From an uncultured delta proteobacterium (lineage in GTDB: Bacteria > Myxococcota_A > Polyangia > Polyangiales > Polyangiaceae): a stretch of 64,000 nucleotides of DNA. This document shows positions 15,426-47,006 of the stretch, in pieces. The translations under genes and the position numbers were made by a program. The notes under the pieces were generated by a model, which saw nothing but the letters and a program-made list of their open reading frames with translations, had not been told where the DNA came from and made no database searches. The stretch is taken from NCBI GenBank assembly GCA_963696385.1, contig CAVOKF010000005.1:992001-1056000 (forward strand), given 5' to 3'. Numbering within the stretch: the stretch's first letter is position 1; every line of letters starts with the position of its first letter.

Positions 15426-15544
15426 GGCGCTCGGGGCTTTTACGCCCGAATGGGACCCTTCGTCGAGGGCGAGCTGAACCGCGCGCCGCGAGAGGCGCGC
15501 CGGGGCGCGCCTCCCCCCGGCTTTCCGTTCAAATGGGACCGGGA

Positions 15545-17180: not shown

Positions 17181-17267
17181 CCCCTCGCGTCGAAGCCCGC
17201 TCCTGGCCCGCTACGGACTCGGCGTGCCGAGTTGACCCTGCGGCGAGGTCCGCCTAGGGTCGGCCCC

Positions 17268-19437: not shown

Positions 19438-19556
19438 GCGTGGATCCTCTCGAAAGCAGCTTTACGAAACATCCCGGTGTTTTGCGCGAAATACGAGGAC
19501 GGCAGTCTGGGCCCGCGCCCGCGACCCTTCGGCCCGGCGACGAAAGGACAGCGTCC

Positions 19557-32308: not shown

Positions 32309-33637
32309 ATGCTCGACCGATTCTTGCCTCACCCATCCCCGTTCGAGCGCTTGCTGGCGCGCGGCTTGCGCCCGTTCGCGAAGGTCGAACCGGCGGAGGC
32401 CGTCACCGCGTCGGGCATGCTGGTCATCGTGCTGTTGTTGATGACCGCGTATTACTTGCTCAAGACGGCGCGGGAGCCGCTGATTTTGCTCCAGGGCGGA
32501 GCGGAGGTGAAACTCTACGCCGAGGCGGGGCAAGCGCTGCTCCTGATCGGGGTGGTGCGGGCCTACAGCGCAATCGCCCGACGTGTCGGGCGACTCAAGC
32601 TTCTGGCCACCGTTTACCTGTTTTTCGCGTCGAACATGGTGGTGTTCGCGGTGCTGGCCCGCACCCGGATCCACATCGGCCTCGCATTCTTTCTCTGGGT
32701 CGGGATTTTCAGCTACACGTCCATCGCTCAGTTCTGGGCATTCGCCGCCGACATTTACAGCGAGGACCAAGGCAAGCGTCTATTTCCGATCGTCGGGGTC
32801 GGTAGTTCAGTGGGCGCGGTTGTCGGCGCGCGCGCCGCAAAAGCGATCGTGCCTTTCGGCGCATACGCACTCATGTACGGCGCTGCGCTGCTCGTGGTCG
32901 TGTGTGTCCTGCTGCTGGCTTGGGTCGACCGGCGAGCCCGCGCCGACGATGCGAAGGCTGGAGGTCACGCCAAAGTGCAGCCCGACGAGCCGGTCGGGGA
33001 CGACACCCCTTTGCGTCTTCTCGCCCGCGACAAGTACCTGATCCTCATCGGGGCGCTTACCTTGATACTCAATTGCGTCAGCGGCTTGGGCGATTACATT
33101 CTGGACCGCACCCTGCTCTCGCACCTGGGTGACGCCCGGGCCCTCGGGATGTCGCCCACGACATTTATCGGATCGTTCAAGGCCAGCTACTTCGGCTGGT
33201 ACAACCTCGTCGGCGTCGTACTGCAGCTGTTCGTCGTGTCGCGCATCCTTTTGCGGTACGGCGTTCGCGGGGCACTTCTCTGCCTACCCGTCGTCGCATC
33301 GATGGGCTTCTGCGCGTTCACGCTGGTGCCGGTGCTGCCCCTCATCCGCGCAGTCATGATCGCCGAGCGAAGTCTCGACTACTCGCTGACCAACACCTCC
33401 CGCAACGCCCTGTTTCTCGTCGCGACGCGCGTCGAGAAATACGTGGGCAAAACGCTCGTCGATACGGTCGGCGCCCGATCGGGGGACGTCGTGTCGGCGT
33501 TCGTCGTCTTGCTGGGGACGCGCATTGGAATGCCGACGGCGGGCTTCTCCGCGATCTGCGTGTGTTTCACCGGAGCTTGGATTGCGGTCGTCGTGGCGAT
33601 TGGGGTCGAGCACCAGCGTCGAATCGCGTCTTCCTGA
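32309..33637 (+). CDS. TLC (ATP/ADP, NTP/NDP exchange) family MFS carrier
   Basis: AYYLLKTAREPL; FFLWVGIF; QFWAFAADIY..DQGKRLF; DYSL; EKY.GK..VDT...R.GD. Confidence 0.85.
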   Translation: MLDRFLPHPSPFERLLARGLRPFAKVEPAEAVTASGMLVIVLLLMTAYYLLKTAREPLILLQGGAEVKLYAEAGQALLLIGVVRAYSAIARRVGRLKLLATVYLFFASNMVVFAVLARTRIHIGLAFFLWVGIFSYTSIAQFWAFAADIYSEDQGKRLFPIVGVGSSVGAVVGARAAKAIVPFGAYALMYGAALLVVVCVLLLAWVDRRARADDAKAGGHAKVQPDEPVGDDTPLRLLARDKYLILIGALTLILNCVSGLGDYILDRTLLSHLGDARALGMSPTTFIGSFKASYFGWYNLVGVVLQLFVVSRILLRYGVRGALLCLPVVASMGFCAFTLVPVLPLIRAVMIAERSLDYSLTNTSRNALFLVATRVEKYVGKTLVDTVGARSGDVVSAFVVLLGTRIGMPTAGFSAICVCFTGAWIAVVVAIGVEHQRRIASS

Positions 33638-34060
33638 AGTTGCATCGAGTCCGCGCGCGCGGGCGGCAGCGGTTGACGAGACGAGGATCCACCTTCACTT
33701 CGGGCGAACCGTCGGAAAAAAAGGGTCGGAGCGCCAGCGTCGGATGAGAACGTGGACCGTCCGGCGCACACCCTCCGTGGGGTCCGAGACGAGCCGGGCT
33801 TGGGTCCCTGCGACGACCCGTCGCAACCGACGTGAAGGGCGCATCAAATTGCGCCGCACCGGAGATGCTAAAAAGTGCATCAAGATATATTCGATCGATA
33901 CGATTTCCGCAGTGACGGGGATCGCGCCGCACCGCGCGTAGCCTCGTAATTGAGGCAGTTTGTAGGGTCATGTTTCGAGACCGAGTCCAGATCAAGACGT
34001 GAAGATTGCATATGTTTTAACTCATCGCGCGGCGCCGCATTTACTCCATTGGGGTGCACT

Positions 34061-34077
34061 TTTATCAAATTTTTAGT
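34061..34077 (+). promoter_or_regulatory. KdpE-box-like direct repeat upstream of beta-barrel 1
   Basis: TTTATC-aaatt-TTTAGT, similar to the E. coli KdpE site TTTATA-N5-TTTACA. Confidence 0.55.
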
Positions 34078-34235
34078 GCCCGATCGCCTACTGTCCACAC
34101 GGGTGCGAGGCCGCTGCAAGACACGGTTCTGTGGTCGGTGAACTCGCCCAGCGGCGACGGCGCCGCCGCGCGTTCTCGCCGGAGGCCGCGCCCGGCGGTG
34201 CGCCGGTGCGCCGCGCCCTCATCAGGAGTATCAAG

Positions 34236-35777
34236 ATGCTTGGCTCGCTCTCTCGCGCTCGTTGCGCGTGGATCGTCGCATTCGTGGTCTGGGGGGCGGA
34301 GTCGGTCGCGTACGCGCAGTCGACCGTTCCGCGGGAGTCGGCGCCAGCCCCACCGGCGGTGCCGCCGGAGCCAACGACGACTCCATTCTCGGCACCAGCG
34401 CCGCAGTCGCCCCGTCCGTCCGAGCCGACGCTCGCCTCCGCTCCCACGCAGAGCACGGCGCCTCTGCCGGCCGGGCCGGCTGCGGCGGCCTCGGTCGAGA
34501 AGCCGGCGGAGCCGTTCGCGTTCGGCGACTTTGCTTGGCTCAACGGGGCGAACCGGCAGCACAAATCGCTGCTCGACAGCGAATATTTCACGGGCAGTTT
34601 CCTGCTCGATGTCAACTATGCCTACGGGTTCAATCGGCCCATCGACGACACGGTCGTCGGATCGACTGCGATCTCTCGATACAACGAGGTGACGCTCCAA
34701 TTTCTCGGTTTTGGCGGGGACTTCCACTGGGGCAACACCCGCGGCCGATTCATGACGCAGTTTGGCACTCGGTCGACGCAGATCCCCCGGAACGATGGGA
34801 GCATCCTTCGCGGGCAGTTCGATCTGGCGACGGCGCTTCGGTACGTGAGCGAGGCATACGGCGGCCACCACTGGGACGTGTGGCACGGCGTCAACCTCGA
34901 CGTCGGCATTTTCATGTCCTACGTCGGGCTATTTTCGTACGCGAGCTTCGAGAACTGGGCGTACCAGCCGTCCTTTACGTCCGACAACACACCTTGGTTC
35001 TTCAACGGCGCCCGCCTCCAGGCATTCCCGACCGACAAGTTCAAGGCGGAGCTCTGGCTCATTAATGGATGGCAGACGTACGGCAAGTTCAACGAGCTGC
35101 CCGGAGTGGGGTTTCAGGTGCTTTGGCGCCCGGACGAGTCGTGGGAGTTCGTCTCCAACGGCTACGTCGGCTGGGACACCCAAGACGACCCGGGCCGGAT
35201 GCGGTTCCACAGCGACAACAGCATCGAGCTTCGGTACTTCAATTCGCCGGGCTCACTGCTTCATCGAGCCGCCTTCTCGGTGACGGGCGACATCGGTGGC
35301 GAGCAAGGCGATGGCGTCACCCCCTTCGGCGGCGGCGGCAAAGAGGGGGGCTGCACGGAATCGACGCCGTGCACGCAGAACTTCGTGAGCGGAATGGTGT
35401 ACCACCGCATGTGGTTCTGGGAGGATCACATCGGGTGGACGTTCGGCGGGGGCACCATGCACAACCCCGGGCGGTACCTCGTCCTTGCGCCCACCGGCGC
35501 GGCGACGCCGGGCACGCCGGTCACGGGGTTCGACATGAGCACGGGAACGAAATTCGACGCGTGGGACGCTTCGACGACCATCCAGTGGATGCCCAATGAA
35601 CTGGAGACGTGGGAGATCGAATATGTCCACCGTGAAGCGAGCGTTCCGTACTTCGCTGGACACGGCGGAGTGACCTCGCCGGATGGATACACGACGACGA
35701 CCGTGCCACGCGGATGGCAGCCGGACCTGGTGCGATCCGAGTCCAAGATCATTGCCGCTCTTCTCATCCGATTTTGA
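34236..35777 (+). CDS. Outer-membrane beta-barrel protein (putative porin, BBP2/DUF1597-like), copy 1
   Basis: SD aggag; signal peptide AYAQ; Pro-rich linker; PFAFGDFAWLNG; GIFMSYVGLFSY; SDNTPWFFNG; C-terminal LLIRF. Confidence 0.85.
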   Translation: MLGSLSRARCAWIVAFVVWGAESVAYAQSTVPRESAPAPPAVPPEPTTTPFSAPAPQSPRPSEPTLASAPTQSTAPLPAGPAAAASVEKPAEPFAFGDFAWLNGANRQHKSLLDSEYFTGSFLLDVNYAYGFNRPIDDTVVGSTAISRYNEVTLQFLGFGGDFHWGNTRGRFMTQFGTRSTQIPRNDGSILRGQFDLATALRYVSEAYGGHHWDVWHGVNLDVGIFMSYVGLFSYASFENWAYQPSFTSDNTPWFFNGARLQAFPTDKFKAELWLINGWQTYGKFNELPGVGFQVLWRPDESWEFVSNGYVGWDTQDDPGRMRFHSDNSIELRYFNSPGSLLHRAAFSVTGDIGGEQGDGVTPFGGGGKEGGCTESTPCTQNFVSGMVYHRMWFWEDHIGWTFGGGTMHNPGRYLVLAPTGAATPGTPVTGFDMSTGTKFDAWDASTTIQWMPNELETWEIEYVHREASVPYFAGHGGVTSPDGYTTTTVPRGWQPDLVRSESKIIAALLIRF

Positions 35778-35896
35778 GGCCTCCGCAGGCGAATCTGGGT
35801 GAGCCGAGTCGGGCTCGGAGAGGTCCGTGCGCGTAATAGAGGAGCAATTTCTGCGTCGTAGGCTCTGGCGGCGCACCGTAGGCGTCGGGTAATCGA

Positions 35897-36538
35897 ATGG
35901 AGAGCGTCATGAAAGCGGCAATGGACTCTTCGACTTGGATCCGCCTCGGCGGCGTTTTGCTGGCCGTGGCGATTGCGTGCTTGGTCGTTTCGGCCGGCTG
36001 CTCTGCGACGGCCGATGGGGACCGATGCGATCCGCTCCTCAGTCACGACGAGTGTGCGAACTCGCCGACCGAGCAATGCACCTGGATCACATCCACGAAC
36101 CCGGACGGCACGCCGACCCCCGCGAACGCATGTGCCGCCGGCTTGGCATTTTGCTGCGCGCAAGACGCGAACGGCACCATCACGAGCACCTCGGCGAACT
36201 GCCAATTTCTGGCGCAGTGCCAGAAGGCGACGTACTGCCAGACCGACCCGGAGCCGGACGCGGGAGACGACGGGGGCCTCACGGCATTCGTGACCGGGCA
36301 GTTCTGCCGGCTCGGGACCCCCACAACGCCGGAACCCGACGCGGGGTCGTCTTCACCCGATGCATCAGACGGATTTTCCACAGCGGACGCGGCGGACGGG
36401 TCTTCCGCTCTTGATACGGGGTCCTCGGCACCGGACGCGGCAGACGGGTCGGACGCGGCAGACGGGTCGGATGCGGCAGACGGGTCGGACGCGGCAGACG
36501 GGTCTACGCCGGACGCAGCAGACGGTACCGGGGATTGA
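35897..36538 (+). CDS. Cys-rich lipoprotein with DAADGS repeat tail (porin-linked, copy 1)
   Basis: SAGC lipobox; GDRCDPLLSHDEC; FCCAQDANGTIT...CQ; acidic repeat tail. Confidence 0.75.
   Translation: MESVMKAAMDSSTWIRLGGVLLAVAIACLVVSAGCSATADGDRCDPLLSHDECANSPTEQCTWITSTNPDGTPTPANACAAGLAFCCAQDANGTITSTSANCQFLAQCQKATYCQTDPEPDAGDDGGLTAFVTGQFCRLGTPTTPEPDAGSSSPDASDGFSTADAADGSSALDTGSSAPDAADGSDAADGSDAADGSDAADGSTPDAADGTGD
36431..36528 (+). repeat. 18-bp coding tandem repeat (DAADGS)
   Basis: gacgcggcagacgggtcg, ~4-5 copies. Confidence 0.85.
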
Positions 36539-36659
36539 GTGTCCGCGCGGGGGGACCACGACGGCGCAGCAGACACCCGATCCGGGGAGGCGATGAAACG
36601 CCGAGCGCGACCGCGGACCCTGCTGCGCTTTTTCGTGTGGGTGGACACAGATGGGGAAG

Positions 36660-37088
36660 TCATTGGGCGGTCGCATCGGACGGCACGGTCGCATCGGACG
36701 GCACGGTCGCATCGGACGGCACGGTCGCATCGGACGGCACGGTCGCATCGGACGGCACGGTCGCGTCCGGACTGCCGCCGCTGTCCTCCGGGTTGAACGC
36801 AAGGGCCTGGCATGTCGGGACATCGGCCCCGCAGGGTCCGCTGGAGCATGCGTAACCGGGGCCAAGGGACATGGCGCACTCGGTATCGGTGCTGCAAAGC
36901 GTCAGACATTCCTTGCCGAGCCCGGTGCACCCGCCGTCGGTCGAAGGCAACGACTCGGACAGACACCGGAGCCCCGACCCGCAGTCGCCGTCTTCTGTGC
37001 ACGACACGCCTTGGAGCCCGGAGCTACCCGGGCCGCATGCGACGAGAACAACGAGAACGGCGACTGCCAGCGAGGCCGTTCGGTGCAT
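36660..37088 (-). CDS. Cys-rich lipoprotein with DATVPS repeat tail
   Basis: LVAC lipobox; SCTEDGDCGSGLRC; CLTLCSTDTEC; tail (DATVPS)n. Confidence 0.7.
   Translation of the reverse strand: MHRTASLAVAVLVVLVACGPGSSGLQGVSCTEDGDCGSGLRCLSESLPSTDGGCTGLGKECLTLCSTDTECAMSLGPGYACSSGPCGADVPTCQALAFNPEDSGGSPDATVPSDATVPSDATVPSDATVPSDATVPSDATAQ
36668..36770. repeat. 18-bp tandem repeat (DATVPS on the minus strand)
   Basis: cggtcgcatcggacggca, 5 full copies plus a partial copy. Confidence 0.9.
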
Positions 37089-37167
37089 CGCCGCTACCGC
37101 TACTGCGAATGCCGTGAAAGGTCGACTTCGAGGTGAGACGCCCATACGCCAGGCGGTGGTCACCCAG

Positions 37168-37665
37168 TCACCGCCGCCGCGCCGCGAAACGTTGCGCGCG
37201 TTCGACCAGGCGTTGCGCTTTCTCGCGGTCGTCGATCAGGACCGTCACGACGTACCCATCGCCGGTTGAAGTCGCTTTGATATCAACCCATGACCCGGGC
37301 AATACGTAGGGGTCGTCGGGTATCGCTCGGGCGCTGCCGAGGGTGACCAGGGACTCGTGGCATTCGGCGCTGCGCTCGAGCGCATCCGCCGATAGGATGG
37401 CCTTCGGTCGAAAGCGCAAGCGGGCTCCCCGGAGCCGCATGGACCGGTCCATGCCGGACGGGACGTAGAAGTAGGCCGGCTCGACGCCTTCGAGATCCGA
37501 TGTCGAAAGGGCCAGAGCGTCGACGGCCTCGTCGGGGTGGTCGCAGCGCGAAGCGATCTCGCGGGCGCGGTCGACGGGCGTACGCATGTCCGGCCAAATA
37601 GGATTGTACGCGCAGCCCACCCAGGCGATCGAGACACCCGCGATCCAAGGCATCGTTCCGTTCAT
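37168..37665 (-). CDS. Uncharacterised lipoprotein family 'CH-DPY-W', paralogue 1
   Basis: WVGC lipobox; RLRGARLRFRP; ERSAECHE; DDPYVLPGSWVDI; AQRLVERA. Confidence 0.75.
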   Translation of the reverse strand: MNGTMPWIAGVSIAWVGCAYNPIWPDMRTPVDRAREIASRCDHPDEAVDALALSTSDLEGVEPAYFYVPSGMDRSMRLRGARLRFRPKAILSADALERSAECHESLVTLGSARAIPDDPYVLPGSWVDIKATSTGDGYVVTVLIDDREKAQRLVERAQRFAARRR

Positions 37666-37767
37666 GATGCGTCGAGATCCATCGGAGGCGTGCTAGCCGA
37701 TGGTCGCTACGGCGCGCCGACAGGCCGTTTCTCGCGATTACGAAATCTGTCTGAAACAAATACCCGA

Positions 37768-38352
37768 TTATTCGGCCAGCGCGCGCGCTCGCTCGATGAT
37801 CTGCCGGGCGGCTGTAACGTCTCGGGCCGTAATCGCGATGCGGAATCCGTCGCCTGTCGCGGACAGAGCGACGCGCGCGTCGTCAACGAACAAGGGGCTC
37901 GTTCGGTCCGCGACACGGTCGCCGACCACCGCATGGTGGGCCAAATGGCACTCAAGAACGCGGCCCAGTGACTGCTCAGTCATTCCGGGGGCTGCCCGCA
38001 GGTACACGGCGACGCCGGCGGGTTGAAGAATCGGGTCCTTCGGATAAGGGCGTACGCTGAGCGGCTCGATGGCGGCGATTCGGTCGCGACGGGCGAGCGG
38101 CCCCTGGTCGCGGTCGGACTCCGGCACCTCGGCGCATGTGGCTTGTTCGACTTCGCGCAGCCGCTCGGCCGCGGCCCAGTGGCTGTAGGTGGTCGCGCCG
38201 AATGCACCCGGCGGCGACAACCCGTTCGCCGCTAGCTCGTGGTTTTCGGCGGTCGTGCGGCGAATCGAGTCGGATTGCGTGGCGCAAGCGCCTGTCGTGA
38301 GACCCGCGAACAGCGCAGCAAGGACCAACACGAACGAATTCGCTCTCATCAT
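37768..38352 (-). CDS. Uncharacterised lipoprotein family, paralogue 2 (divergent)
   Basis: TGAC lipobox; GVAVYLRAAPGMT; RVLECHLA; GDGFRIAI; ARQIIERA. Confidence 0.75.
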   Translation of the reverse strand: MMRANSFVLVLAALFAGLTTGACATQSDSIRRTTAENHELAANGLSPPGAFGATTYSHWAAAERLREVEQATCAEVPESDRDQGPLARRDRIAAIEPLSVRPYPKDPILQPAGVAVYLRAAPGMTEQSLGRVLECHLAHHAVVGDRVADRTSPLFVDDARVALSATGDGFRIAITARDVTAARQIIERARALAE

Positions 38353-38458
38353 GAACAACTTCCATCTCCGCGCGCGACAAGGGTTGCAGGGGTGCTCGCC
38401 GTACCCGACACACTAGCCACGAAATACATATTCGATGCGCAAATAGACTGCCTTGATT

Positions 38459-38475
38459 CGTAATGAAACTATAAA
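38459..38475 (-). promoter_or_regulatory. KdpE-box-like repeat upstream of paralogues 2 and 1
   Basis: Minus strand TTTATA-gtttc-ATTACG. Confidence 0.45.
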
Positions 38476-38698
38476 CGCTCGCGAGCGCGCACCTTTGTTT
38501 CGACGCCGCGCGGGTCGCGGTTTCGTGGGCGGACTGGATCCAGACCGGCAGCGGCGTGGATTCGCGAAGTTTCGTTGTCGATTGCGGCGTTCAGCAGATG
38601 AGCGAGAGCTCCGTGAGGGCGCATTCGGGCCTGCGGACCTGCTTGAGAGCGGCTCGGATCACGCGCCATCAACGTGACCCGAGATGCGCCGATGTGCG

Positions 38699-38715
38699 AA
38701 TAAAAATGGGATAAA
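38699..38715 (-). promoter_or_regulatory. KdpE-box-like repeat
   Basis: Minus strand TTTATC-ccatt-TTTATT. Confidence 0.55.
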
Positions 38716-38780
38716 TAGTTGGGGTCTTGTCATCCGGCGCCCGTAATATGGATCGCTTGAGCCCCCCGTCCGTTTCTCAA

Positions 38781-38797
38781 TTTACGGCCTTTTGATT
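38781..38797 (+). promoter_or_regulatory. KdpE-box-like repeat upstream of response regulator 1
   Basis: TTTACG-gcctt-TTGATT. Confidence 0.5.
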
Positions 38798-38863
38798 GCC
38801 CGCCGCACTACAAAGAAAAGCGCCGATGATTCGCCGATGCCCCCCCCAGGCTGGTGTTCCGCG

Positions 38864-39571
38864 ATGAATGGGCAGTTCGCCGCGGAGCCTTTGGTCCTTG
38901 TGGTCGAGGACGACCTTCCGCCCGGGCGATCGATCGTGTCCAACCTGATCGGCTTCGGCTTTCGCGTCGAGCAAGCGCCAGCGCGTGTCAGCGCGCTCAC
39001 TCGAGCGGTCGGCCATGAGCCCGACATCGTCGTGCTCGACGCTGTCCACCTGGGCGCGGACGCCGTGAGGTTGATGGCGAGGATTCGCGCTTGGACCGCC
39101 ACGCCTATCGTGGCCATTGTCGACGCATCGCGACCGAGCCAGCGAGGGGCCCTTCTCGACGCGGGAGCGAACGATTACATCGTTCGCCCCTTCGCGTGGA
39201 CGGATCTCGCGGGACGCTTGCGCGTTTGGCTTCGCCAGAAGGGTCGAATGCACGCGCAGCGCTTTGCATTGCACTTGGCCACCGAGCGGCTGCGGATCGA
39301 TCGGGATCGCCGCACCATCGTCGTCGAGGGCCGCGAGGTACACATCACACCGCTTGAATGCAAGCTGCTGCTTATTCTGGCGCACAATCCGGGACGGGCG
39401 ATGACCGAAGACCAGATTCTGGCTGCCGTCTGGGGTCCGAAGGCGTCGCCCCGCGCGCAGTACCTGCGGGCCTATGTACGGCATCTCCGGCTCAAGTTGG
39501 AGAAGGACCCGACCCGGCCGAAGTACCTGGTGAGCGACGCGGGCGGAGGTTATCGATTGAACCTCGGCTAA
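38864..39571 (+). CDS. OmpR-family KdpE-like response regulator, atypical receiver
   Basis: VLVVEDD; DIVVLD; LDAGANDYIVRPF; wHTH AVWGP...QYLRAYVRHLRLKLEKDPTRPKYL...GGGYR. Confidence 0.88.
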   Translation: MNGQFAAEPLVLVVEDDLPPGRSIVSNLIGFGFRVEQAPARVSALTRAVGHEPDIVVLDAVHLGADAVRLMARIRAWTATPIVAIVDASRPSQRGALLDAGANDYIVRPFAWTDLAGRLRVWLRQKGRMHAQRFALHLATERLRIDRDRRTIVVEGREVHITPLECKLLLILAHNPGRAMTEDQILAAVWGPKASPRAQYLRAYVRHLRLKLEKDPTRPKYLVSDAGGGYRLNLG

Positions 39572-39904
39572 CGCCTGGGCTCTGCGCGCGGCGGACCGTC
39601 CGCGTGTCTGCGGTCGCGTCAAAGAGCGCTCTGTCCGGCGCTGAGCGCGGCATACGGTCTCGGTCATGGCCAATGCAATAATCGCATTAGCACAGCCTGC
39701 GGCCTGTCAACGAGCCGTACATTTCGATACGCGCCTCATCGGCGAATCGATTGGAGTACGAAAACACATAGCCCTCAAACGGACATCTGCGCGAAATGTT
39801 CGTGTGGGATCGGCTGTCCCAGCGGGCCGGCCGAAAGGGCAGCGACGACCCCTTGCCGGCTGCGATTGGGGAGCCCCGCCCGGTCGCGCGCCACACCCGG
39901 CGCC

Positions 39905-39921
39905 AGTAAATAACACGTAAA
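39905..39921 (-). promoter_or_regulatory. KdpE-box-like repeat
   Basis: Minus strand TTTACG-tgtta-TTTACT, the closest match to the canonical box. Confidence 0.55.
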
Positions 39922-40045
39922 ATGTACGACCAGACCCCCCCGTGCGCCTCGAAATGGCGCACCCGCCCGGAGTAACCTCACCGTTCCGAGGATGGCTTCG
40001 ACCGCGCGCCGGCTCGGAACGGCAAACAAGTCGCGCCTACGCGAA

Positions 40046-40780
40046 ATGTCGCACACCCACGGCCGCAGCGTGACTTTCGGGACCCACTGGCGTGGCGAGG
40101 CCTTGCTGCTCGTGAGCGCGTTCTCGATCGTTGGATGCGAGCCCGATGTGCAGGTCACGAGCAAAATGGCGGCGGACTTCCAACCCGCGCAGCACGCGGT
40201 GTCGGTTTTTGGCGTTTACAAGGATGGGCAGCTGAGCTCCGATTCGTGGGGGGCCGTGAAGGCGCAGCTTTCGCCCGTCTTCGGGGGAGCGATGTGCGAG
40301 GCGGCGTACACCGAATCCTTCATCACCGCGAACCCCGCGCTGTCGGCGGCCATCGCCGACGTGAGTCGCGACAACGGGTTCTCGGACGCCTTGCTGGCGA
40401 AAATCGCGGTCGGAGCCCGCGGCGACCTCGTGCTCGTGCTGACCGTCGCCGGCCAGCTGCCCACGCACCCGAAGGTTTCGCTTCCCAAAGAGGCGGAGTC
40501 GGGCCATCAAGCATCCCCCATGGGACCTCGCTCGACGATGGGGCGTCCCAAGCTGGAGGACCCAAACGCCATCGACTTGGCAGCGACGCTCTTTTCCGTC
40601 CCGGAGCACCGATCGGTTGCGGTCGTGGGCATCCGATACACCGGCCGGAACATCGACGAGGGCGTTGCTCAATTCGTTGCACGTCTCGCCCAAGCGCTTC
40701 CCGGCGCGAGATGCGCGGACTGGAACTGGGCCAACAAGCCGGACGCGGAGAGCGTCCGGCAGACCGCCAACCAAGACTGA
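40046..40780 (+). CDS. Hypothetical lipoprotein
   Basis: FSIVGC lipobox; VSVFGVYKDG; C-terminal LPGARCADWNW. Start uncertain. Confidence 0.65.
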   Translation: MSHTHGRSVTFGTHWRGEALLLVSAFSIVGCEPDVQVTSKMAADFQPAQHAVSVFGVYKDGQLSSDSWGAVKAQLSPVFGGAMCEAAYTESFITANPALSAAIADVSRDNGFSDALLAKIAVGARGDLVLVLTVAGQLPTHPKVSLPKEAESGHQASPMGPRSTMGRPKLEDPNAIDLAATLFSVPEHRSVAVVGIRYTGRNIDEGVAQFVARLAQALPGARCADWNWANKPDAESVRQTANQD

Positions 40781-40939
40781 CACGTCGATCGGGGGCGGTG
40801 AACGGGCGCGGCCGAGGGGCCCTGCCTGGTCGTGGATCATCGGGTGGAGATCGCGAGACTGCTGGGTCCCGCACCGCGGGCTAGCCTGCCCAGCCTCTCG
40901 GTTGCGTAACCTTCCGAGCGCCCGGACGTAACCTCCACC

Positions 40940-41470
40940 GTGGGCGTCAACGCAAACAAGGCCAAAGGCAGAGGGGCTTCGCTCGGGGCAATGGTCACCG
41001 CGCTGGGGCTCCTGGCCGGCGCTTGCGCCACGCCGGTGTCCTTGCCCGCGCGCGCGGCGAGCATGGCAGCCAACGAGTGCCGGGATGCGCTGCCCGCGGA
41101 AGAAGAGGCGCGAGCGATCGAGTCGATCCAGGTTCTCGAGGCCCGTCCGAAGTTCCATCAGAACGCGTGCAACGGTGTATGTACGGTCTGGGGCGTCTAC
41201 CTCGTCGTGCGGCCGCCGGGAGGCGTCGATCCCGAGCGCTTCGCCAGGATACTGCGATGCCACAACCTCCGCGTGCTCGACGGCGAGGTGGACGCGTCGC
41301 GGATACCGAACGACCCGTATGGCCTGCGCGACTCGTGGCTCGAGATCGAGGTGAAGCCCGACGCAGGCAATTACATCGTGACGCTGGTCGGCGACCATGT
41401 CTCGGACACGCTGCGCATCTTGCAGAGGGCGAAAGCCTACTCGGCAGCGCACCGGGCGGGAACGCTCTAG
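40940..41470 (+). CDS. Uncharacterised lipoprotein family, paralogue 3
   Basis: LAGAC lipobox; GVYLVVRPPGG; RILRCHN; NDPYGLRDSWLEIEV; GNYIVTL; ILQRA. Confidence 0.75.
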   Translation: MGVNANKAKGRGASLGAMVTALGLLAGACATPVSLPARAASMAANECRDALPAEEEARAIESIQVLEARPKFHQNACNGVCTVWGVYLVVRPPGGVDPERFARILRCHNLRVLDGEVDASRIPNDPYGLRDSWLEIEVKPDAGNYIVTLVGDHVSDTLRILQRAKAYSAAHRAGTL

Positions 41471-41679
41471 CCGCCGCTTCGTAGACGCATCGGCTCGTGC
41501 GCACGAGCGCGGTCATCGCACGGACGGACGGCCTGCCGTCGTCGTGGCGTGGAGCATTCGCCCGCCTGATTCGGGTCGGGGCGGAGGATTGGCGTGCGCA
41601 GTACGGAGGGTGCGTCAGGATCCTGGGGTGACTTCGTCTACGGGCGGGGTAGGCTCCTGGGCTCCTCCGAGGTGACCCC

Positions 41680-42204
41680 ATGGGAATCCATCCGCTAGCG
41701 ATCTCGACGGCGTCCGGTTTGGCCTTTGTGTTCGCGTGCGAGACAGGCGTACCGCCCGCGACGGCTGCTGCTGCTGCAGAGCACGAGCAGTGCGATTCCC
41801 GAGTGACCGCCCCCGCGGCGACGCAGCTCCTGCAGGCGAACGCCGTGCTGCGCATCCAGCCGCTTTACCATCACATCATCGTGAACCCGAACAACGCCGA
41901 AGAGCGGCCCTCCGGCGTCAAACTGGTACTCCGTCCGCCGACCGGCGTGACCGCCGAAGAGCTGACCCGAATTCTGCAATGCCACAGCGCCCGTGTGCTC
42001 CTGGGAAAGGTCAATCCAGCCGAGATACCGGACGACCCGTATTGGCTTGCCGACCGATGGCTGGACATCCAAGTGACACCGGAAAATGGCAACTTCGCCG
42101 TGACGGTATGCGCCGACTCCGTGGACGACAATATCGAGGTGCTAGGCCGCGCAACCCGATATGCGCACGAGCACATGCTTGCCATCGAGGAAAGCATCCC
42201 GTAG
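41680..42204 (+). CDS. Uncharacterised lipoprotein family, paralogue 4
   Basis: VFAC lipobox; GVKLVLRPPTGVT; RILQCHS; DDPYWLADRWLDIQV; GNFAVTV; VLGRA. Confidence 0.75.
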   Translation: MGIHPLAISTASGLAFVFACETGVPPATAAAAAEHEQCDSRVTAPAATQLLQANAVLRIQPLYHHIIVNPNNAEERPSGVKLVLRPPTGVTAEELTRILQCHSARVLLGKVNPAEIPDDPYWLADRWLDIQVTPENGNFAVTVCADSVDDNIEVLGRATRYAHEHMLAIEESIP

Positions 42205-42394
42205 CATCCGAGGCATGGACGGCATGGCGCCCGTTCGCCTGGACGCGGCAGGCGTCCTGGCCGGCCCGGGGGGCCCTCGCCCGCGAGTTCGCCCAGGCTG
42301 CGTGTTTCGGAGCGCGGCATCGAGGAACGCGAGCGAATCGCTGGCTCGGCGACGGTGAGGGCGGGGGCCGTCGCCAGCGTCCGCATCGGGTAGG

Positions 42395-43177
42395 TCAGTC
42401 TTTGCGGAGACGATATCCGATCCCAGGCTCGGTCAAGAAGTAGTACGGCCGGGCCGCGTCGATCTCGAACTTGCGGCGCAGCTGGCCCATGTACACGCGA
42501 AGGTACTGCGTGGCGTTCGTGTGCGCCGGGCCCCAGACGGCCATCATGATCTGCTCGTGCGTCAGCACCTCGCCGGCCCTGCGCATCATGGTCTCGAACA
42601 GCTTGTACTGACGCCGCGTGAGCCGCACCTCGTGCCCGCGCACGAACGCCTGGGCCTTGCCGAAGTCGATGCGGAGCGGCCCGACCTCGAGCGCCGAGCC
42701 CAGCGAGTGCGCGCTCGCGCGCTGGCGGTGACGAAGCCACACCCGGACGCGGGCGAGAAGCTCGCCCGTTGCGAATGGCCTCGTCAGGTACTCGTTCGCG
42801 CCCGAGTCGAGCGCCGGGATCTTGTGGTTCTCGTCCTCAGGTTCAGCGAGGATGAGGATGGGCGCATCCGACCACGCCCGGAGGCTGGTGGTGACCTGGA
42901 TGCCGTTTAGGTCCGGCAGGCCGAAGTCGACGATGACGATGTCGGGGTTGTATGCGGTCGCATGCGCGAGCCCCTGCCTTCCGGTGTCGGCTTCGATCAC
43001 GCGCATCCGCTGGTCGCAGAGGACCGTGCTCAGATAAGCGCGCGCGCGTGCGTCGCTCTCGGCCAGGAGAACGAGCGGCGTGACCGCGCGCTTCGCGCGC
43101 GCTTGGACCGGAGGGCCGGACCTCGGGATCGCGTTCGACGGATCGTCGTCCAGAACGACGGCAAGTGAGGTCTGCAT
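42395..43177 (-). CDS. OmpR-family KdpE-like response regulator, atypical receiver
   Basis: PDIVIVDFGLPDLNG; LDSGANEYLTRPF..GELLARVR; VLTHEQI..AVWGP; YLRVYMGQLRRK; LTEPGIGYR. Confidence 0.9.
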   Translation of the reverse strand: MQTSLAVVLDDDPSNAIPRSGPPVQARAKRAVTPLVLLAESDARARAYLSTVLCDQRMRVIEADTGRQGLAHATAYNPDIVIVDFGLPDLNGIQVTTSLRAWSDAPILILAEPEDENHKIPALDSGANEYLTRPFATGELLARVRVWLRHRQRASAHSLGSALEVGPLRIDFGKAQAFVRGHEVRLTRRQYKLFETMMRRAGEVLTHEQIMMAVWGPAHTNATQYLRVYMGQLRRKFEIDAARPYYFLTEPGIGYRLRKD

Positions 43178-43187
43178 GGGATCTCTC

Positions 43188-43241
43188 CATTTTTATCTCT
43201 GATTTGCGCGGAGCGTCGGCATTTTCATCTCAGATTTGCGC
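43188..43241 (+). promoter_or_regulatory. Two 22-bp direct repeats (32-bp period), each containing a KdpE-box-like site
   Basis: catttttatctctgatttgcgc and cattttcatctcagatttgcgc; core TT(T/C)ATC-N5-TTTGCG. Confidence 0.6.
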
Positions 43242-43439
43242 AAGCTCGGCGCCACGATTTTCCACGTTTTTGCGCCGAATCACCGAGGCTCCTCGCGCCC
43301 TCTGTCTCGGCGGCGCTGTTGGAATAACCGCAGAATGCGAGGGCATGTATGTCGTCACGGTTTCGACCGCACGGCGTGGTCGTGATCCGGCCTTTTCCAC
43401 ATTCGCTATCCCAATTTTGATTCCGCCAGGAAGCTACAA

Positions 43440-43456
43440 TTAACGTCTTTTTTATT
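43440..43456 (+). promoter_or_regulatory. KdpE-box-like repeat upstream of beta-barrel 2
   Basis: TTAACG-tcttt-TTTATT. Confidence 0.5.
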
Positions 43457-43616
43457 TCGTTGCGTCCTAAGGAAGCACTCGTAGCTCACTGAAGCCACGG
43501 GTCGAAGGCCGTCGCCGCAAGGCGACCTAGCCGTCACCGCCGCGGCTCCGGCGCATGAATCCTCACGCGTCGATGGCGGTCCCTTGTCTTCGTCGAAAAC
43601 GCGAGGAGTTCCATCT

Positions 43617-45221
43617 ATGAAACGTAAGTCGAGCCTTCGCAGCCTGCGCTTCGGTACCGTCTTGGGCGCGCTGTCCATCTCCGTGGAGAGCGTGGCGTTC
43701 GCGCAGCCACCTCCCGCCGAGACGCCTCCGCCCGCGGCCCCGCCGCCCGCTGCGGCGCCCGCGGCCCCGCCGCCTGCAGCTGCGGCCGCCCCTGCGCCGG
43801 CGGCCCCCGCAGCGACTGCGCCGCCCGCGGCCCCGACCGGGTTCGCCGCGCCCCCCACGCCTGCCGCGCCCGCCGCTGCGCCCCCGCCGGGCCCGTTCGA
43901 CGGCATTGCCCAGACGGAGAGCCCGCCCTTTGCCCTGGACTTCGGTTGGATCAACGGTACCAGCCGACAGAAGAAGCCTGTGATCGACACGCCGTTCTTC
44001 ACCGGCGAGTTTCTCGTTGACGTCAACTACACCCAGTCCAAGGCCAACCCGATCGACCATACCGTCATCGGGTCGACGTCGATCGCGCGAGACAACGAGG
44101 TCTCACTCGCCTTCTTGGGCCTCGGCGGCGACTTCCACATCAAGAACACGCGTATGCGCATCATGACGCAGTTCGGGTACCGCGCCGTGGAGATTCCGCG
44201 CAACGACTTCAGCACCTTCCATGGGCAGTTCGACTTGCAGAACACGCTCCGATACATCAGCGAGTGGAACGGCGGATACCACTGGGATGTGCTCCACGGC
44301 ATCAACGTCGACGCGGGCATCTTCATGTCGTACGTCGGCCTGTTCTCGTACACCGCATACGAAAACTGGATGTACGTCCCGTCGTATACCTCGGACAACA
44401 CGCCCTGGTTCTTCAACGGCATCCGGACGCAGATCTTCCCGACCGACACCCTGAAGATCGAGCCTTGGATCATCAACGGCTGGCAGTCGTACGCCAAGTT
44501 CAACGACATGCCCGGCTTCGGTGGCCAGGTGATGTTCCGTCCCGTCGAGTGGATCTCGATGAACTCGAACGACTACTTCGGCTTTGACGCCCAGGACCTA
44601 TCGGGCCTTTACCGCTGGCACACGGACAACAGCTTTAACATCCGATACTGGAACAACCCGGGCGCGTCGGTCATCACACGCCTCGCCGCGTCGTACACCT
44701 TCGACGTCGGCGGCGAACACGGGGACGGTGTCGCGTTCTCCGGCAAATCGCCGGAGTTCCAATGCAGCGTCGCAAAGCCCTGCCCGGCGCGCTTCATCAG
44801 CGCGATGACCTACCAGCGCGCCTGGTTCGGCGACCAGTTCGCGGTCACCGTCGGCGGCGGCTGGATGACCAACCCCAGCCGCTACCTCATCCTGACGCCG
44901 ACTGGAAATGCCCAGCCCCTTCCCCAGCCCGAGAGCACGGCACAAGTCGCGTACGTCCCACCCACGAGCCCGTATGACATCAACTTCGGCTCGAAGATCA
45001 CCATGTGGGACTACGAGGCCGGCTTTCAATACATGCCGAGCGACTATTTCACGCTGGACGTCGAGCTGAACCATCGGGGATCGAGCGTTCCGTTCTTCAA
45101 CGGTCACGGCGGCGACACCTCGCCCGACGGCTACATCACGACGCCTGCGGGTCCGGGCTGGCGGGCGGACCTGCAGAAGTCCGACGACCGAATCATCATT
45201 GCTTGGCTGGTCCGCCTCTAA
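43617..45221 (+). CDS. Outer-membrane beta-barrel protein (putative porin), copy 2
   Basis: SD gaggag; signal AFAQ; Pro/Ala linker; GIFMSYVGLFSY, SDNTPWFFNG, GHGG and TSPDGY shared with copy 1. Confidence 0.85.
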   Translation: MKRKSSLRSLRFGTVLGALSISVESVAFAQPPPAETPPPAAPPPAAAPAAPPPAAAAAPAPAAPAATAPPAAPTGFAAPPTPAAPAAAPPPGPFDGIAQTESPPFALDFGWINGTSRQKKPVIDTPFFTGEFLVDVNYTQSKANPIDHTVIGSTSIARDNEVSLAFLGLGGDFHIKNTRMRIMTQFGYRAVEIPRNDFSTFHGQFDLQNTLRYISEWNGGYHWDVLHGINVDAGIFMSYVGLFSYTAYENWMYVPSYTSDNTPWFFNGIRTQIFPTDTLKIEPWIINGWQSYAKFNDMPGFGGQVMFRPVEWISMNSNDYFGFDAQDLSGLYRWHTDNSFNIRYWNNPGASVITRLAASYTFDVGGEHGDGVAFSGKSPEFQCSVAKPCPARFISAMTYQRAWFGDQFAVTVGGGWMTNPSRYLILTPTGNAQPLPQPESTAQVAYVPPTSPYDINFGSKITMWDYEAGFQYMPSDYFTLDVELNHRGSSVPFFNGHGGDTSPDGYITTPAGPGWRADLQKSDDRIIIAWLVRL

Positions 45222-45248
45222 GCGCGGCTTGGAATCTCGGAGATCACC

Positions 45249-45944
45249 ATGAAGCCTACAAAGACTGTGAAGAGCACTTTCATGACCCCGATCCATCTCG
45301 CTCGCCTAGGTGTGCTGCTTGCGGTTGGCTCAGTCGCGCTCGCCCTGGCGCCAGCCGGCTGCATCGGCGGATGGGCCTACGGCAACGTTCCCGAAGGCGA
45401 CCGATGCAATCCGTACGACAGCCACAACGAGTGTAAGAGCGGCCTGGCCTGCACCGTCTCATCGTGGCAAGTGGCCAACCAGGGCCTCGTGTCGGCCCAG
45501 GGAACCGTCGTCCCCTTCCTCACCGCAGGCTCCGGGCCCACGCTCCCGTTCTGCGCCGAAAACTACTGCTGCCCGGTCGACAGCAACGGCAACCTCACGC
45601 CAAGCAGCAACCCGTATTGTCAGGCGGGTTGCAACGGCGGAGCGGCGTCGATTTGCACCGCACTCGGAAACAACACGACCGCCCCTTACATTGGTGTGTG
45701 CGATTTCGCGGATGGGGGTGTGTTGCCGCCGGAGGAGGACGCCGGCGACGGGGGCACACCCGAGGCGTCCGCGGAGGCGAGCACGGAGGCGAGCACGGAG
45801 GCGAGCACGGAGGCGAGCACGGAGGCGAGCACGGAGGCGAGCACGGAGGCGAGCACGGAGGCGAGCACGGAGGCGAGCACGGAGGCGAGCACGGAGGCGA
45901 GCACGGAGGCGAGCACGCCCGCCGATGGAAGTAGCGGAGACTGA
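45249..45944 (+). CDS. Cys-rich lipoprotein with (EAST)n tail (porin-linked, copy 2)
   Basis: PAGC lipobox; GDRCNPYDSHNEC; YCCPVDSNGNLT...CQ; repeat tail. Confidence 0.75.
   Translation: MKPTKTVKSTFMTPIHLARLGVLLAVGSVALALAPAGCIGGWAYGNVPEGDRCNPYDSHNECKSGLACTVSSWQVANQGLVSAQGTVVPFLTAGSGPTLPFCAENYCCPVDSNGNLTPSSNPYCQAGCNGGAASICTALGNNTTAPYIGVCDFADGGVLPPEEDAGDGGTPEASAEASTEASTEASTEASTEASTEASTEASTEASTEASTEASTEASTEASTPADGSSGD
45772..45917 (+). repeat. 12-bp perfect coding tandem repeat (EAST), ~12 copies
   Basis: cggaggcgagca repeated. Confidence 0.95.
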
Positions 45945-46119
45945 GAGGCACTGCTGACAGCACGAACCGCCGTCGCCTCCCTTGCTATGCGCATGAACGC
46001 GTGCGCGCCCCAGGGGAGGCGATCGCTGGACCCTGAGCGAGCTCTCTGTTCTTTTCGGTGGCGGGTGCGGTCCCTTGCGATCGACGTCGATGCCACTTTG
46101 TGTAACATCCGGACCGCAG

Positions 46120-46646
46120 ATGCGGCGATTCCTTGCTTGGTCGTGGGCGGCATCGATGGCTCTCTCGGGCTGCGGCTCGTGCTCGTGGTTTCCGCTTCTG
46201 CCGGACAAGCGGACGACCGTGGACCACGCGCATGAGCTCGACGAAACGTGTGCGCAGGATGCTGGACCGTTGGCGGCTGATGCGCTTTCTCCCTCCGTCA
46301 TCGAGAGTGTCCAGGCAGCCTATATCCACGTGAACCAGGAGCGGGGGGCGACCTACGCCTGCGCGGTGCGGAGCTGCACATGCGGCCGACGGTGACCATC
46401 CCCGTCGGCGTGCTGCAGCGCGCTCTCGAGTGCCATGAAGCGGCCGTCACGTTGGGAGACGCGCCGGAGCTCCCCGAAGATCCGTACGTCCTGCCTGGTT
46501 CCTGGCTCCAGATCGACGTCAGCGTCACGAACGAGGGGCTGATGGCGGCCGTGCTCACGAACACCCCTGACGACGCGCGGCGCGTCATAGAGCGAGCGCA
46601 CAGGTTCGCGCCCTCCGCGCGTCTGGTGATCGCGCCACGGCCGTGA
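46120..46646 (+). CDS. Uncharacterised lipoprotein family, paralogue 5; frameshift in the G6 run at 46343-46348
   Basis: LSGC lipobox and PDKRTTVD in one frame; DLRLRGAELHMRP, RALECHE and EDPYVLPGSWLQI in the next. Removing one G restores a protein most similar to paralogue 1. Confidence 0.75.
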
Positions 46647-46718
46647 TGAATCAGGGTCCCATGCGGCCGCGTCGCCAAGGGTGCGCGGGGGACGGGTGTC
46701 GACGAGGGCGCCGAACGG

Positions 46719-47006
46719 TCAGCCCCCTTGCGGGTTCACGCAATCGGCCTGCGCCTGCGGAGGGGCTCCCCTAAACTGGGCATCGCCTCCGGCATCGTTC
46801 GTGATAGTGACCGTGCAGGTGGAGCCCGTTACCACGACGGTGGCCTGTCCGGGCGTCGGGGAAGCGCCGCAGAAGCAAACGGTGGACCCATCGCTCGCGG
46901 TGACGACGCAGCAGGTGTTGAGGGGTGGAAAGGATGCCGCACCCGTGCAAGAGAGCGCACCTACGGAAAGAGCCAGGCCGAACAGCGCGGGGATGCTCGT
47001 TCTCAT
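46719..47006 (-). CDS. Small Cys-rich lipoprotein
   Basis: ALSC lipobox; TCCVV, VCFC and CTV motifs. Confidence 0.55.
   Translation of the reverse strand: MRTSIPALFGLALSVGALSCTGAASFPPLNTCCVVTASDGSTVCFCGASPTPGQATVVVTGSTCTVTITNDAGGDAQFRGAPPQAQADCVNPQGG

Follow-up and report, generated by a model that had tools for sequence, protein, structure and literature searches.

Gene Organization of the Block

The 64,000-nucleotide stretch of DNA analyzed here, referred to below as the window, is part of contig CAVOKF010000005.1 (positions 992,001 to 1,056,000) of an uncultured delta proteobacterium, a soil myxobacterium of the family Polyangiaceae (assembly GCA_963696385.1). Its region 33831-47006 carries a block of genes for two outer-membrane β-barrel proteins (BB1 and BB2), two KdpE-like response regulators (RR1 and RR2), and a series of lipoproteins. 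On balance, and with slightly more than even confidence, the block can be regarded as a duplicated, genus-specific derivative of an outer-membrane module belonging to the Kdp K+-uptake system. This reading is based on homology, cross-phylum synteny, the genome-wide distribution of a shared DNA box, and structure models.

Genes were called from third-position GC content (GC3), which is informative in this GC-rich genome, and were then translated. The calls bear out the gene order and content of the original prediction, which can be written as BB1> CysLP1> <CysLPa <fam1 <fam2 RR1> LP> fam3> fam4> <RR2 BB2> CysLP2> fam5> <CysLPb (Table 1). All nine products other than the barrels and regulators have a signal peptide with a lipobox Cys at its end, as read from the translations, and none of these nine lipoproteins scored above the cut-off in Pfam or NCBIfam scans. 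The trio of barrel, CysLP, and fam genes occurs twice in the window, as had been predicted, but a third trio lies on contig C7 of the same genome, where it is accompanied by a KdpE-like regulator and two additional fam genes. In the following, G000 denotes the source genome (6.9 Mb; contigs C1 and C3-C7 are cited), G003, G008, and G012 denote relatives, and L numbers denote loci.

Table 1. Genes and sequence elements of the block, with positions in the window.
Feature	Position	Strand	Location or basis
Near-match box (1 mismatch to TTTA[TG]-N6-TTTA[TG])	33868..33883	-	upstream of BB1
Exact box TTTATCAAATTTTTAG	34061..34076	+	160 bp upstream of BB1 start, in BB1's orientation
BB1, BBP2 porin; signal peptide and Pro/Ala-rich N-terminal linker	34236..35777	+	PF07642
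CysLP1, small Cys-rich lipoprotein after BB1; acidic tail, 18-bp x 4.1 repeat	35897..36538	+	translation, repeat scan
CysLPa, Cys-rich lipoprotein of second type; tail is a perfect 18-bp x 5.4 repeat	36660..37085	-	
fam1, fam lipoprotein, barrel-associated subtype	37168..37665	-	
fam2, most divergent fam member of the window	37768..38358	-	
Exact box TTTATCCCATTTTTAT	38700..38715	-	divergent fam2/RR1 gap, 77 bp from RR1 start
RR1, KdpE-like OmpR-family regulator, RR1 type	38792..39571	+	
LP, module-conserved lipoprotein	39992..40780	+	
fam3	40940..41470	+	
fam4, member used for structure model (pLDDT 90.7)	41680..42204	+	
RR2, KdpE-like regulator, RR2 type	42395..43177	-	
22-bp repeat, 2 copies, CATTTT[T/C]ATCTC[T/A]GATTTGCGC	43188..43241	+	11-64 bp upstream of RR2
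BB2, BBP2 porin; model with porin fold	43617..45221	+	
CysLP2, Cys-rich lipoprotein after BB2; perfect 12-bp x 12.2 (EAST)n tail	45249..45944	+	
fam5, intact gene; window short of one G behind 46337	46120..46646	+	
CysLPb, small Cys-rich lipoprotein, convergent with fam5	46719..47006	-	

The BBP2 Barrels and Their Linkage to kdp

BB1 and BB2, which are 49-54% identical to each other, are both members of the BBP2 family (PF07642), scoring 123.8 and 114.8 bits, respectively, against a gathering cut-off of 26.2. The structure model of BB2 (pLDDT 81.1) adopts a porin-like barrel of 16-18 strands, as counted from the DSSP string, and is about equally similar to MOMP, Omp32, OprP, AlgE, and OmpF in Foldseek comparisons (TM near 0.5). 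PF07642 was found in none of 14 control genomes of model organisms.

A scan with the barrel alignment, covering one genome per species, gave 588 relatives, and gene neighborhoods were counted in the best 79 loci. These are the most similar loci rather than a random sample, several of them overlap on the same contigs, and many of the contigs are short. They belong to Myxococcota (metagenome-assembled genomes of Polyangiaceae and Polyangiales), Bacteroidota, Ignavibacteriota, Acidobacteriota, Elusimicrobiota, and a few others. When the Kdp proteins of the source genome were used as queries, kdpA, kdpB, or kdpC was found within 10 kb of the barrel in 24 of the 79 loci, distributed over at least five phyla, and kdpABC or KdpD/E-like genes were found near it in 39. 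Common gene orders are BARREL>kdpA>B>C>D>E and kdpA>B>C>BARREL>kdpD, and Pfam spot checks of five loci confirmed KdpA, KdpC, full-length KdpD, and BBP2. That barrels of this type often lie beside kdp operons had been stated in the original prediction, and it is confirmed by these 24 loci, with five phyla named.

A quick maximum-likelihood (ML) tree of the barrels, for which a slower, more careful search gave no finished counterpart, assigns the two barrels of the window to a Myxococcota clade of 26 rows (SH-aLRT 99), where they are interleaved with four kdpABC-linked rows. Rows linked to kdp are present in every phylum-level clade of the tree. By phylogeny, the window barrels thus group with kdp-adjacent barrels in what may informally be called a kdp-associated BBP2 subfamily. 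The association of a KdpE-type circuit with an outer-membrane porin-lipoprotein apparatus, which was the core of the original prediction, is upheld by these comparative data, but its direction has to be turned around: instead of a regulon that expanded into the outer membrane, the porin appears as an old companion of kdp in multiple phyla.

Within Myxococcota, the barrel and CysLP genes adjoin kdpABC(DE) in four loci outside the genus of the window. Two of these, L068 and L071, have the order kdpE<kdpD<kdpC<kdpB<kdpA< fam> BARREL> CysLP>, with fam directly upstream of the barrel; L069 shows the same order minus fam, and L073 reads BARREL>CysLP>kdpABCDE. Among the best 79 loci, fam is found in 15 and CysLP in 16, all of them within the 20 Myxococcota loci, and the Pro/Ala-rich N-terminal linker of the barrel is likewise found only in Myxococcota loci.

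The situation in the source genome itself is different in that no barrel lies within or beside kdpFABC or kdpDE. Its four barrels are located on C1, C5 (two), and C7, and they adjoin KdpE paralogues instead of kdp. Neither kdpFABC nor kdpD is present in the window, as had been noted before, and RR1 and RR2 are not encoded with them. The kdp genes, which the original prediction proposed to locate elsewhere in the genome, were found on C6 (kdpA, kdpB, kdpC, a split kdpD, and kdpE), and a second full kdpD is present on C7. The fourth barrel (C1:280707-281990; L014:6707-7990) falls in a distant clade, which also holds L069_b1 and L071_b1, the second barrels beside the kdp-linked barrels of two Myxococcota loci.

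The system had been proposed as undescribed, and this stands only in part. A predicted BBP2 porin downstream of kdpABC has been noted in Leptospirillum, where a link to K+ regulation is suggested in passing and the porin itself is not analyzed (PMC7231039). No characterized kdp-linked porin was found in the literature on kdp, BBP2/PF07642, K+ limitation, and Bacteroidetes; the word "porin" is absent from a Caulobacter K+ preprint, and another paper mentions porins only generically (PMC9062700). In the source databases, relatives of the barrels are named only "hypothetical protein", "porin", "outer membrane beta-barrel protein", or "opacity protein-like surface antigen".

Conservation and Duplication of the Module

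Gene order was compared in 20 regions fetched from 13 genomes, in which six-frame open reading frames (ORFs) were labelled with our own hidden Markov models (HMMs). The neighborhood check that had been suggested across Myxococcota revealed conserved co-localization. In G003, the gene order is that of the block throughout, except that LP and RR2 are separated by three fam genes instead of two. A divergent regulator pair with a KdpD-like kinase gene (HK1) on one side occurs in eight of the 20 loci, each from a different genome, and several of these HK1-RR loci (e.g., L049, L054, and L043) continue on the other side as RR-(fam)-BARREL-CysLP-fam-HK2-fam, HK2 being a second kinase-like gene. A CysLP ORF directly follows a barrel in 12 of the 13 barrel-holding loci. 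In the source genome, a corresponding arrangement without a barrel, HK1-RR1b <-> RR2c-HK2-fam, is located at C5:1.16 Mb, about 120 kb from the block. From such comparisons of sequence, the genus appears to have duplicated the porin together with KdpD/E paralogues and to have uncoupled it from kdpFABC.

These data bear directly on the idea that the block is no coherent system at all and that exported proteins and two regulators merely happen to lie together in a myxobacterial genome rich in paralogues. Myxobacterial genomes are indeed rich in lipoproteins, Ser/Thr kinases, and orphan regulators, several of which are present in the window. The idea is nevertheless hardly credible, and it is already contradicted by the synteny, the kdp linkage, and the boxes: G003 matches the whole block in gene order, at least eight further genomes and other genera show the core arrangement, the trio is present three times in the genome, boxes are shared, and a complex of BB2 with CysLP2 is predicted by modeling (see below).

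KdpE-Type Regulators and KdpD-Type Kinases

The best NCBIfam model of both regulators is KdpE (NF007820), on which RR1 scores 155.8 and RR2 197.4 bits, below the cut-off of 325. The kdp-linked KdpE of the genome also remains below this value (248.1 bits), so the cut-off discriminates poorly in this lineage. The nearest paralogues of RR2 are the fam-linked regulators at C5:1.16 Mb and on C7 (338 bits each), followed by the kdp-linked KdpE (245 bits) and then by RR1b and RR1. These two RR2-type paralogues reach 252-259 bits on the KdpE model, where the kdp-linked KdpE reaches 248. The acceptor Asp is invariant across all six regulator paralogues; in the receiver of RR2, DD is changed to SD, S to A, and K to R. 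RR1 and RR1b likewise have Arg for the receiver Lys and no Ser/Thr, and RR1b nonetheless adjoins HK1. The recognition helices of the RR2 type are nearly identical to that of the kdp-linked KdpE, and the RR1 type differs from it at several positions.

HK1, which is encoded in the paralogous locus and not in the window, has no domains other than four transmembrane (TM) segments (DUF4118), HisKA, and HATPase. Its match to the KdpD model (NF007793) spans model positions 403-889 and scores 385 bits against a cut-off of 1123, and the next model reaches 155 bits. HK1 can thus be described, on homology, as KdpD minus its N-terminal and Usp domains, and RR1, RR2, and the module kinase as KdpE and KdpD paralogues. 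HK2 (L010:5240-6187, +, and orthologues) is a soluble kinase-like protein encoded between the fam genes of the module. Its N and G2 boxes are conserved, and no invariant His is present in the H-box region across seven orthologues, which makes it a possible pseudokinase or accessory ATPase.

RR1 and RR2 had been described as orphan regulators. It is true that no kinase is encoded within the block, but matching kinases are encoded at a distance of about 120 kb and, in eight relatives, inside the module, so the two regulators are orphans only locally. Similarly, the statement that the window contains no histidine kinase holds for the block and for KdpD-type kinases but not for the window as a whole: a hybrid histidine kinase of REC-PAS-HATPase-REC architecture is encoded at 12400-14415 (+), 20 kb upstream of the block, to which no link was seen. 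The kdp-linked KdpD (L017, G000 C6:309313-312052) is divided into two ORFs, one with the N-terminal KdpD domain and the other with Usp-DUF4118-GAF-HisKA-HATPase, and this could be a natural split or another assembly indel.

A Shared Direct-Repeat Box

An 11-bp-spaced direct repeat was first spotted in the intergenic gaps upstream of kdpF/kdpA, upstream of BB1, and between fam2 and RR1. The resulting pattern, TTTA[TG]-N6-TTTA[TG], has eight exact matches in the 6.9-Mb genome, all of them intergenic. Two lie at the kdp locus, one in the gap upstream of kdpF/kdpA and the other on the far side of kdpE, in the gap that separates a 100-aa ORF upstream of kdpE from a divergent Ser/Thr kinase gene. 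Three lie at barrel/fam loci, including the two of the window (Table 1) and one 150 bp upstream of the C7 barrel. The other three precede a P-II-like gene and a CusB/HlyD-like gene or lie between small ORFs without a Pfam match. Of these matches, the C7 site and the site beyond kdpE are independent evidence, as is the low genome total.

"KdpE-like boxes" in the intergenic gaps had been claimed in the original prediction, and they are real: with TTTAKNNNNNNTTTAK at no more than one mismatch, three matches are found in the window, all within the block, against 0.48 expected, and only two of 100 shuffles reach this number. In GC-rich related loci, 26 of 32 box matches have a barrel, RR, fam, HK2, or kdpA ORF immediately downstream and in the same orientation; such genes are frequent in the scanned loci, some of which are duplicates. 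A box orthologous to that of BB1 is located upstream of the G003 barrel (L039). The half-sites differ in their distribution, TTTAG dominating at kdp and at barrels beside true KdpDE and TTTAT at paralogous modules.

Each copy of the 22-bp repeat upstream of RR2 holds a related element, TTTAT-N6-TTTGC, and G003 has one copy at the orthologous place. As a general site, the 22-bp repeat was rejected, because it occurs only upstream of RR2 and once in G003. The short word CATTTT[N]ATC was discarded as non-specific as well, given its 28 genome matches at mostly unrelated positions.

Putative Lipoprotein Partners of the Barrels

The fam lipoproteins, of which five are present in the window as had been described, number 13 in the 6.9-Mb genome when searched by tblastn and by an HMM built from the window members, and nine of the 13 are held by loci with a KdpE-like regulator. 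The quoted motifs of the predicted closest pair, fam1 and fam5, are present, and fam5 is the best in-window match of fam1 (46% identity). In the window, fam5 is spread over two frames and is one G short compared to the G003 orthologue. The extra G behind 46337 is found in contigs of two DNA runs from two studies, which are otherwise identical to the window; this shows that the gene is intact and that its frameshift is an error of the assembly. This demonstrated one-base error suggests that two irregular ORFs on C7 may be assembly artefacts as well, namely the third barrel (L009:10364-11972, -), which is split over two frames, and a fam ORF (L009:8019-9536, -) that continues in frame into a SAM-methyltransferase domain (505 aa).

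Beyond the source genome, fam is carried by 22 of the other 24 members of the genus, in as many as 14 copies per genome. Across the class, it is present in 57 of 301 genomes, representing 28 of 136 genera, usually in 1-3 copies. A profile search returned 1208 cluster representatives at E<=1e-3, and in the Atlas the family is placed in Myxococcota under the name "hypothetical protein". The fam4 model (116 aligned sequences; pLDDT 90.7, pTM 0.81) has two N-terminal helices followed by two hairpin-helix units. In the 116-sequence alignment, Cys101 is invariant and Cys38, Pro120, and the lipobox Cys are nearly so; His102 and Arg97 are also invariant among the 13 copies of the genome. The model gave no Foldseek match to solved structures at E<=1e-3, its VIA-align matches are weak and generic (best Z 5.1 for the ArgR C-terminal domain and 3.6 for DcrB), and the fam profile found nothing below E 0.35 among PDB sequences. 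None of the 116 members matches Pfam below E 1e-4, no Pfam family is matched by more than one member, and NCBIfam gave no match. By these searches, fam is probably a new lipoprotein family with a new fold; its model is confident and has no convincing structural match.

In G008, two fam genes are found between a KdpE-like regulator and kdpA (L045, C1:2087001-2107000, at about 14858-19995), a direct connection of fam with a true kdp operon, whose kdpA is preceded by two boxes, TTTAGAAGACATTTAG and TTTAGCTCTTTTTTAG.

The CysLP core is a domain of 45-60 residues with seven conserved Cys, six of them invariant and one nearly so. In the genus, the core is followed by an acidic tail whose coding sequence is a near-perfect tandem repeat: 12 bp x 12.2 at 45772-45917 (100%) in CysLP2, 18 bp x 5.4 at 36668-36764 (100%) in CysLPa, and 18 bp x 4.1 at 36432-36504 (96%) in CysLP1. 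The tails contain 8-21 Asp and Glu residues against 0-1 Lys and Arg, and they evolve fast, since their sequences differ among orthologues. CysLPa, which is placed 4 bp downstream of fam1, is conserved in G003 and G012. Its match to Myxo_Cys_RPT (TIGR04201) was rejected at 16.8 bits, under the cut-off of 25, and the other Cys-rich lipoproteins gave no match to this model. An S-layer glycoprotein match of CysLP2 was also rejected, as it sits on the low-complexity tail and reaches 22.8 bits against a cut-off of 1100. For LP, a CsgG/LpoB-like assignment from the Atlas is an unverified lead.

A complex of BB2 (residues 105-545) with CysLP2 (38-165) was modeled with a score of 0.66 (runs 0.66, 0.69, and 0.01), and the best of three controls scored 0.00. 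The mark of 0.66 is reached by 116 of 157 solved complexes and by two of 215 mismatched pairs, counts that are approximate in that our own alignments were used. The runs have an agreement of at least 32% and a partner pLDDT of at least 56. The predicted interface on BB2 is a conserved barrel loop, residues 507-529, near the C-terminus. BB2 is covered by contigs from a peat RNA library (about 94% alike), which continue across 44865-45332 into CysLP2. Those on BB2-fam5 come from relatives, since they are only 90-95% alike, and they give a weak hint of expression in a relative.

The lipoproteins could also be viewed as the purpose of the module rather than as its accessories. They would then be cargo, that is, fast-evolving surface or exchangeable proteins for recognition, adhesion, predation, or phage evasion, with the barrel as their translocon or anchor and an accidental kdp linkage. 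The copy number of fam in the genus compared to 1-3 copies elsewhere in the class, the perfect tandem repeats of the CysLP tails that differ among orthologues, and the predicted binding of CysLP by the barrel would fit this view. However, the fam core is conserved rather than hypervariable, with its invariant Cys101, nearly invariant Cys38, and confident common fold, and no toxin, immunity, or recombinase genes were found in the loci scanned. Moreover, phyla from which fam and CysLP are both absent keep the barrel in kdp operons, so export of these lipoproteins cannot be its primary role. We consider the cargo explanation very unlikely.

Proposed Function and Its Main Alternative

The preferred reading, in which the block derives from an outer-membrane module of the Kdp system, can be put as follows. 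The core of the module would be the BBP2 porin subfamily that many phyla keep in or beside kdpFABC-kdpDE. In Polyangiaceae, this porin would have gained a small disulfide-rich lipoprotein, encoded right after the barrel, predicted to dock on the conserved loop, and provided with a polyanionic tail; the fam lipoprotein would be its second partner. The genus would then have copied the module, together with KdpE paralogues of the RR1 and RR2 types and the membrane/kinase half of KdpD (HK1), away from kdpFABC. In the source genome, the barrel copies would have retained the regulators and not the kinases, which lie with a third regulator pair about 120 kb off. Under limitation of K+ or a related cation, KdpD-type kinases would phosphorylate the KdpE-type regulators, and these would bind the direct repeats TTTA[TG]-N6-TTTA[TG] and thereby turn on the genes for the porin and the lipoproteins. 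More porin could then allow a higher cation flux across the outer membrane, feeding the inner-membrane pump. A role in K+ uptake or scavenging is what we infer from this scheme. The same holds for the signal that induces the genes, for their regulation, for the substrate, and for what fam, LP, and the acidic tails do. Channel gating, kinase docking, and cation concentration are speculative roles for fam, LP, CysLPa/b, and the acidic tails.

Several observations weigh against this interpretation. Within 10 kb, 40 of the 79 best loci, many of them on short contigs, have no kdp or KdpD/E-like gene, and many Bacteroidota barrel copies are clearly not linked to kdp. In the source genome, a direct K+ link has been lost, because no kdpFABC lies near any of the barrels. 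General porins already pass K+, and a cation selectivity of the present barrels would be a supposition. Because the box pattern was derived after three sites had been seen, its independent support is limited to the remaining matches and the low total, and BB2 has no exact box. One of the three BB2-CysLP2 runs scored 0.01, and the RNA contigs, coming from relatives and possibly containing DNA, carry no K+ information. Finally, HK1 lacks the N-terminal and Usp domains and with them the full KdpD architecture, and RR1, RR1b, and RR2 have Arg for the receiver Lys and have lost the conserved Ser/Thr. With a truncated HK1 and altered receivers, the paralogous circuits may sense another cue or may signal without phosphorylation.

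The last points lead to the main rival explanation, a shift to another signal, which follows from the fact that the module and the truncated KdpD/E paralogues have multiplied and left kdpFABC. A module descended from kdp would have acquired a new function, responding to another cue (a cation, pH, or osmotic or envelope stress) and serving, independently of K+, in envelope remodeling or protection or in the import of another solute. Besides the missing sensor parts of HK1, the absence of the invariant H-box His from HK2 in seven orthologues and the degenerate receivers of RR1, RR1b, and RR2 favor such a shift, as does the separate, intact kdpFABC-kdpDE locus kept in the genome. The division of boxes into TTTAG-TTTAG at kdp and at true-KdpDE barrels and TTTAT-TTTAT at many paralogous modules is consistent with insulated regulons. 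On the other hand, the RR2-type recognition helices have hardly diverged from that of the kdp-linked KdpE, the BB1 box is a TTTAT/TTTAG hybrid, and the C7 barrel box is TTTAG/TTTAG, as at the kdp promoter. Furthermore, barrels of paralogous modules are interleaved with kdpABC-linked barrels in the quick ML tree, and the fam genes of G008 lie directly between a KdpE-like regulator and kdpA. We regard this explanation as unlikely.

A broader version of the preferred reading, which is possible but which we advance tentatively and with the chances against it, is that Kdp has a widespread outer-membrane arm. A KdpE-controlled cation porin would accompany kdpFABC in at least five phyla, would have become a multi-part machine in Polyangiaceae, and would have given rise to parallel KdpDE-like circuits in the genus. 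The tail of the disulfide-knotted lipoprotein may then concentrate cations, and fam may gate the channel or couple it to the KdpD-type kinase.

Comparison with Known Systems

The module is similar to the KdpD/KdpE-KdpFABC system in several respects. KdpE is the best model of RR1 and RR2, HK1 corresponds to the C-terminal half of the KdpD model, one direct-repeat box is found upstream of kdpF/kdpA, BB1, and the C7 barrel, and the barrel, CysLP, and fam genes adjoin kdpABCDE in other Polyangiaceae. It differs in that no kdpFABC lies near the barrels here, HK1 is truncated, the receiver Lys and Ser/Thr are lost, and the putative targets are outer-membrane proteins. To our knowledge, no outer-membrane targets have been described for the Kdp system of Escherichia coli.

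A functional analogy may be drawn with the phosphate-starvation porins PhoE of E. coli and OprP/OprO of Pseudomonas, which are controlled by PhoB, an OmpR-family regulator, and feed a high-affinity inner-membrane importer. By analogy, a nutrient-limitation regulator would induce a dedicated porin here as well, and the BB2 model aligns to OprP (Foldseek E 2.7e-9, TM 0.51) and to PhoE (1pho, E 2.2e-7). However, only the generic porin fold is common to them, as MOMP, Omp32, and OmpF score alike; the substrate here would be a cation, and dedicated lipoprotein partners are present. Lipoprotein-barrel complexes are also known, examples being LptE-LptD and RcsF with OmpA/C/F. The present module may be likened to them in having a small disulfide-rich lipoprotein that is encoded with a β-barrel and predicted to be bound to it, but there is no homology, and the predicted interface is the conserved loop 507-529 and not a lumen plug.

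With the BBP2/OmpL-like family (PF07642), the module shares barrels that pass the family cut-off and a porin position comparable to that downstream of kdpABC in Leptospirillum (PMC7231039). Among the best 79 loci, the Pro/Ala-rich linker, CysLP, and fam are additions that set the Myxococcota loci apart from the other BBP2 loci.

The module points to a barely studied outer-membrane arm of K+ uptake. How K+ crosses the outer membrane at micromolar levels, the range of KdpFABC activity, has hardly been asked, because the model organisms have no such porin. With a porin that accompanies kdp in at least five phyla, this can be addressed by direct tests in cultured Bacteroidota, for instance Mucilaginibacter or Puia. 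Polyangiaceae contribute, in addition, two lipoprotein families not described before, one of which has a confident model but no structural relative, and a predicted porin-lipoprotein complex. The duplication and rewiring of a two-component system can also be followed there as a natural experiment, in which KdpD is truncated, the receivers are degenerate, a kinase-like partner has no His, and the half-sites of the box vary.

Other Genes near the Block and the Boxes

The gene directly upstream of BB1 (32309-33637, +) encodes a 12-TM-like transporter with a weak match to the TLC ATP/ADP transporters (29.9 bits). Of the boxes outside the kdp and barrel loci, the one at C4:790178 precedes a gene of CusB/HlyD membrane-fusion type (C4:790373-791563; L139:3373-4563, +), which itself follows an AcrB-type pump gene. 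The box at C3:496023 lies 40 bp upstream of, and co-oriented with, the P-II-like gene (PF00543; C3:495537-495983; L138:2537-2983, -), which, on the position of this box, may be a further target of the KdpE-type regulators.

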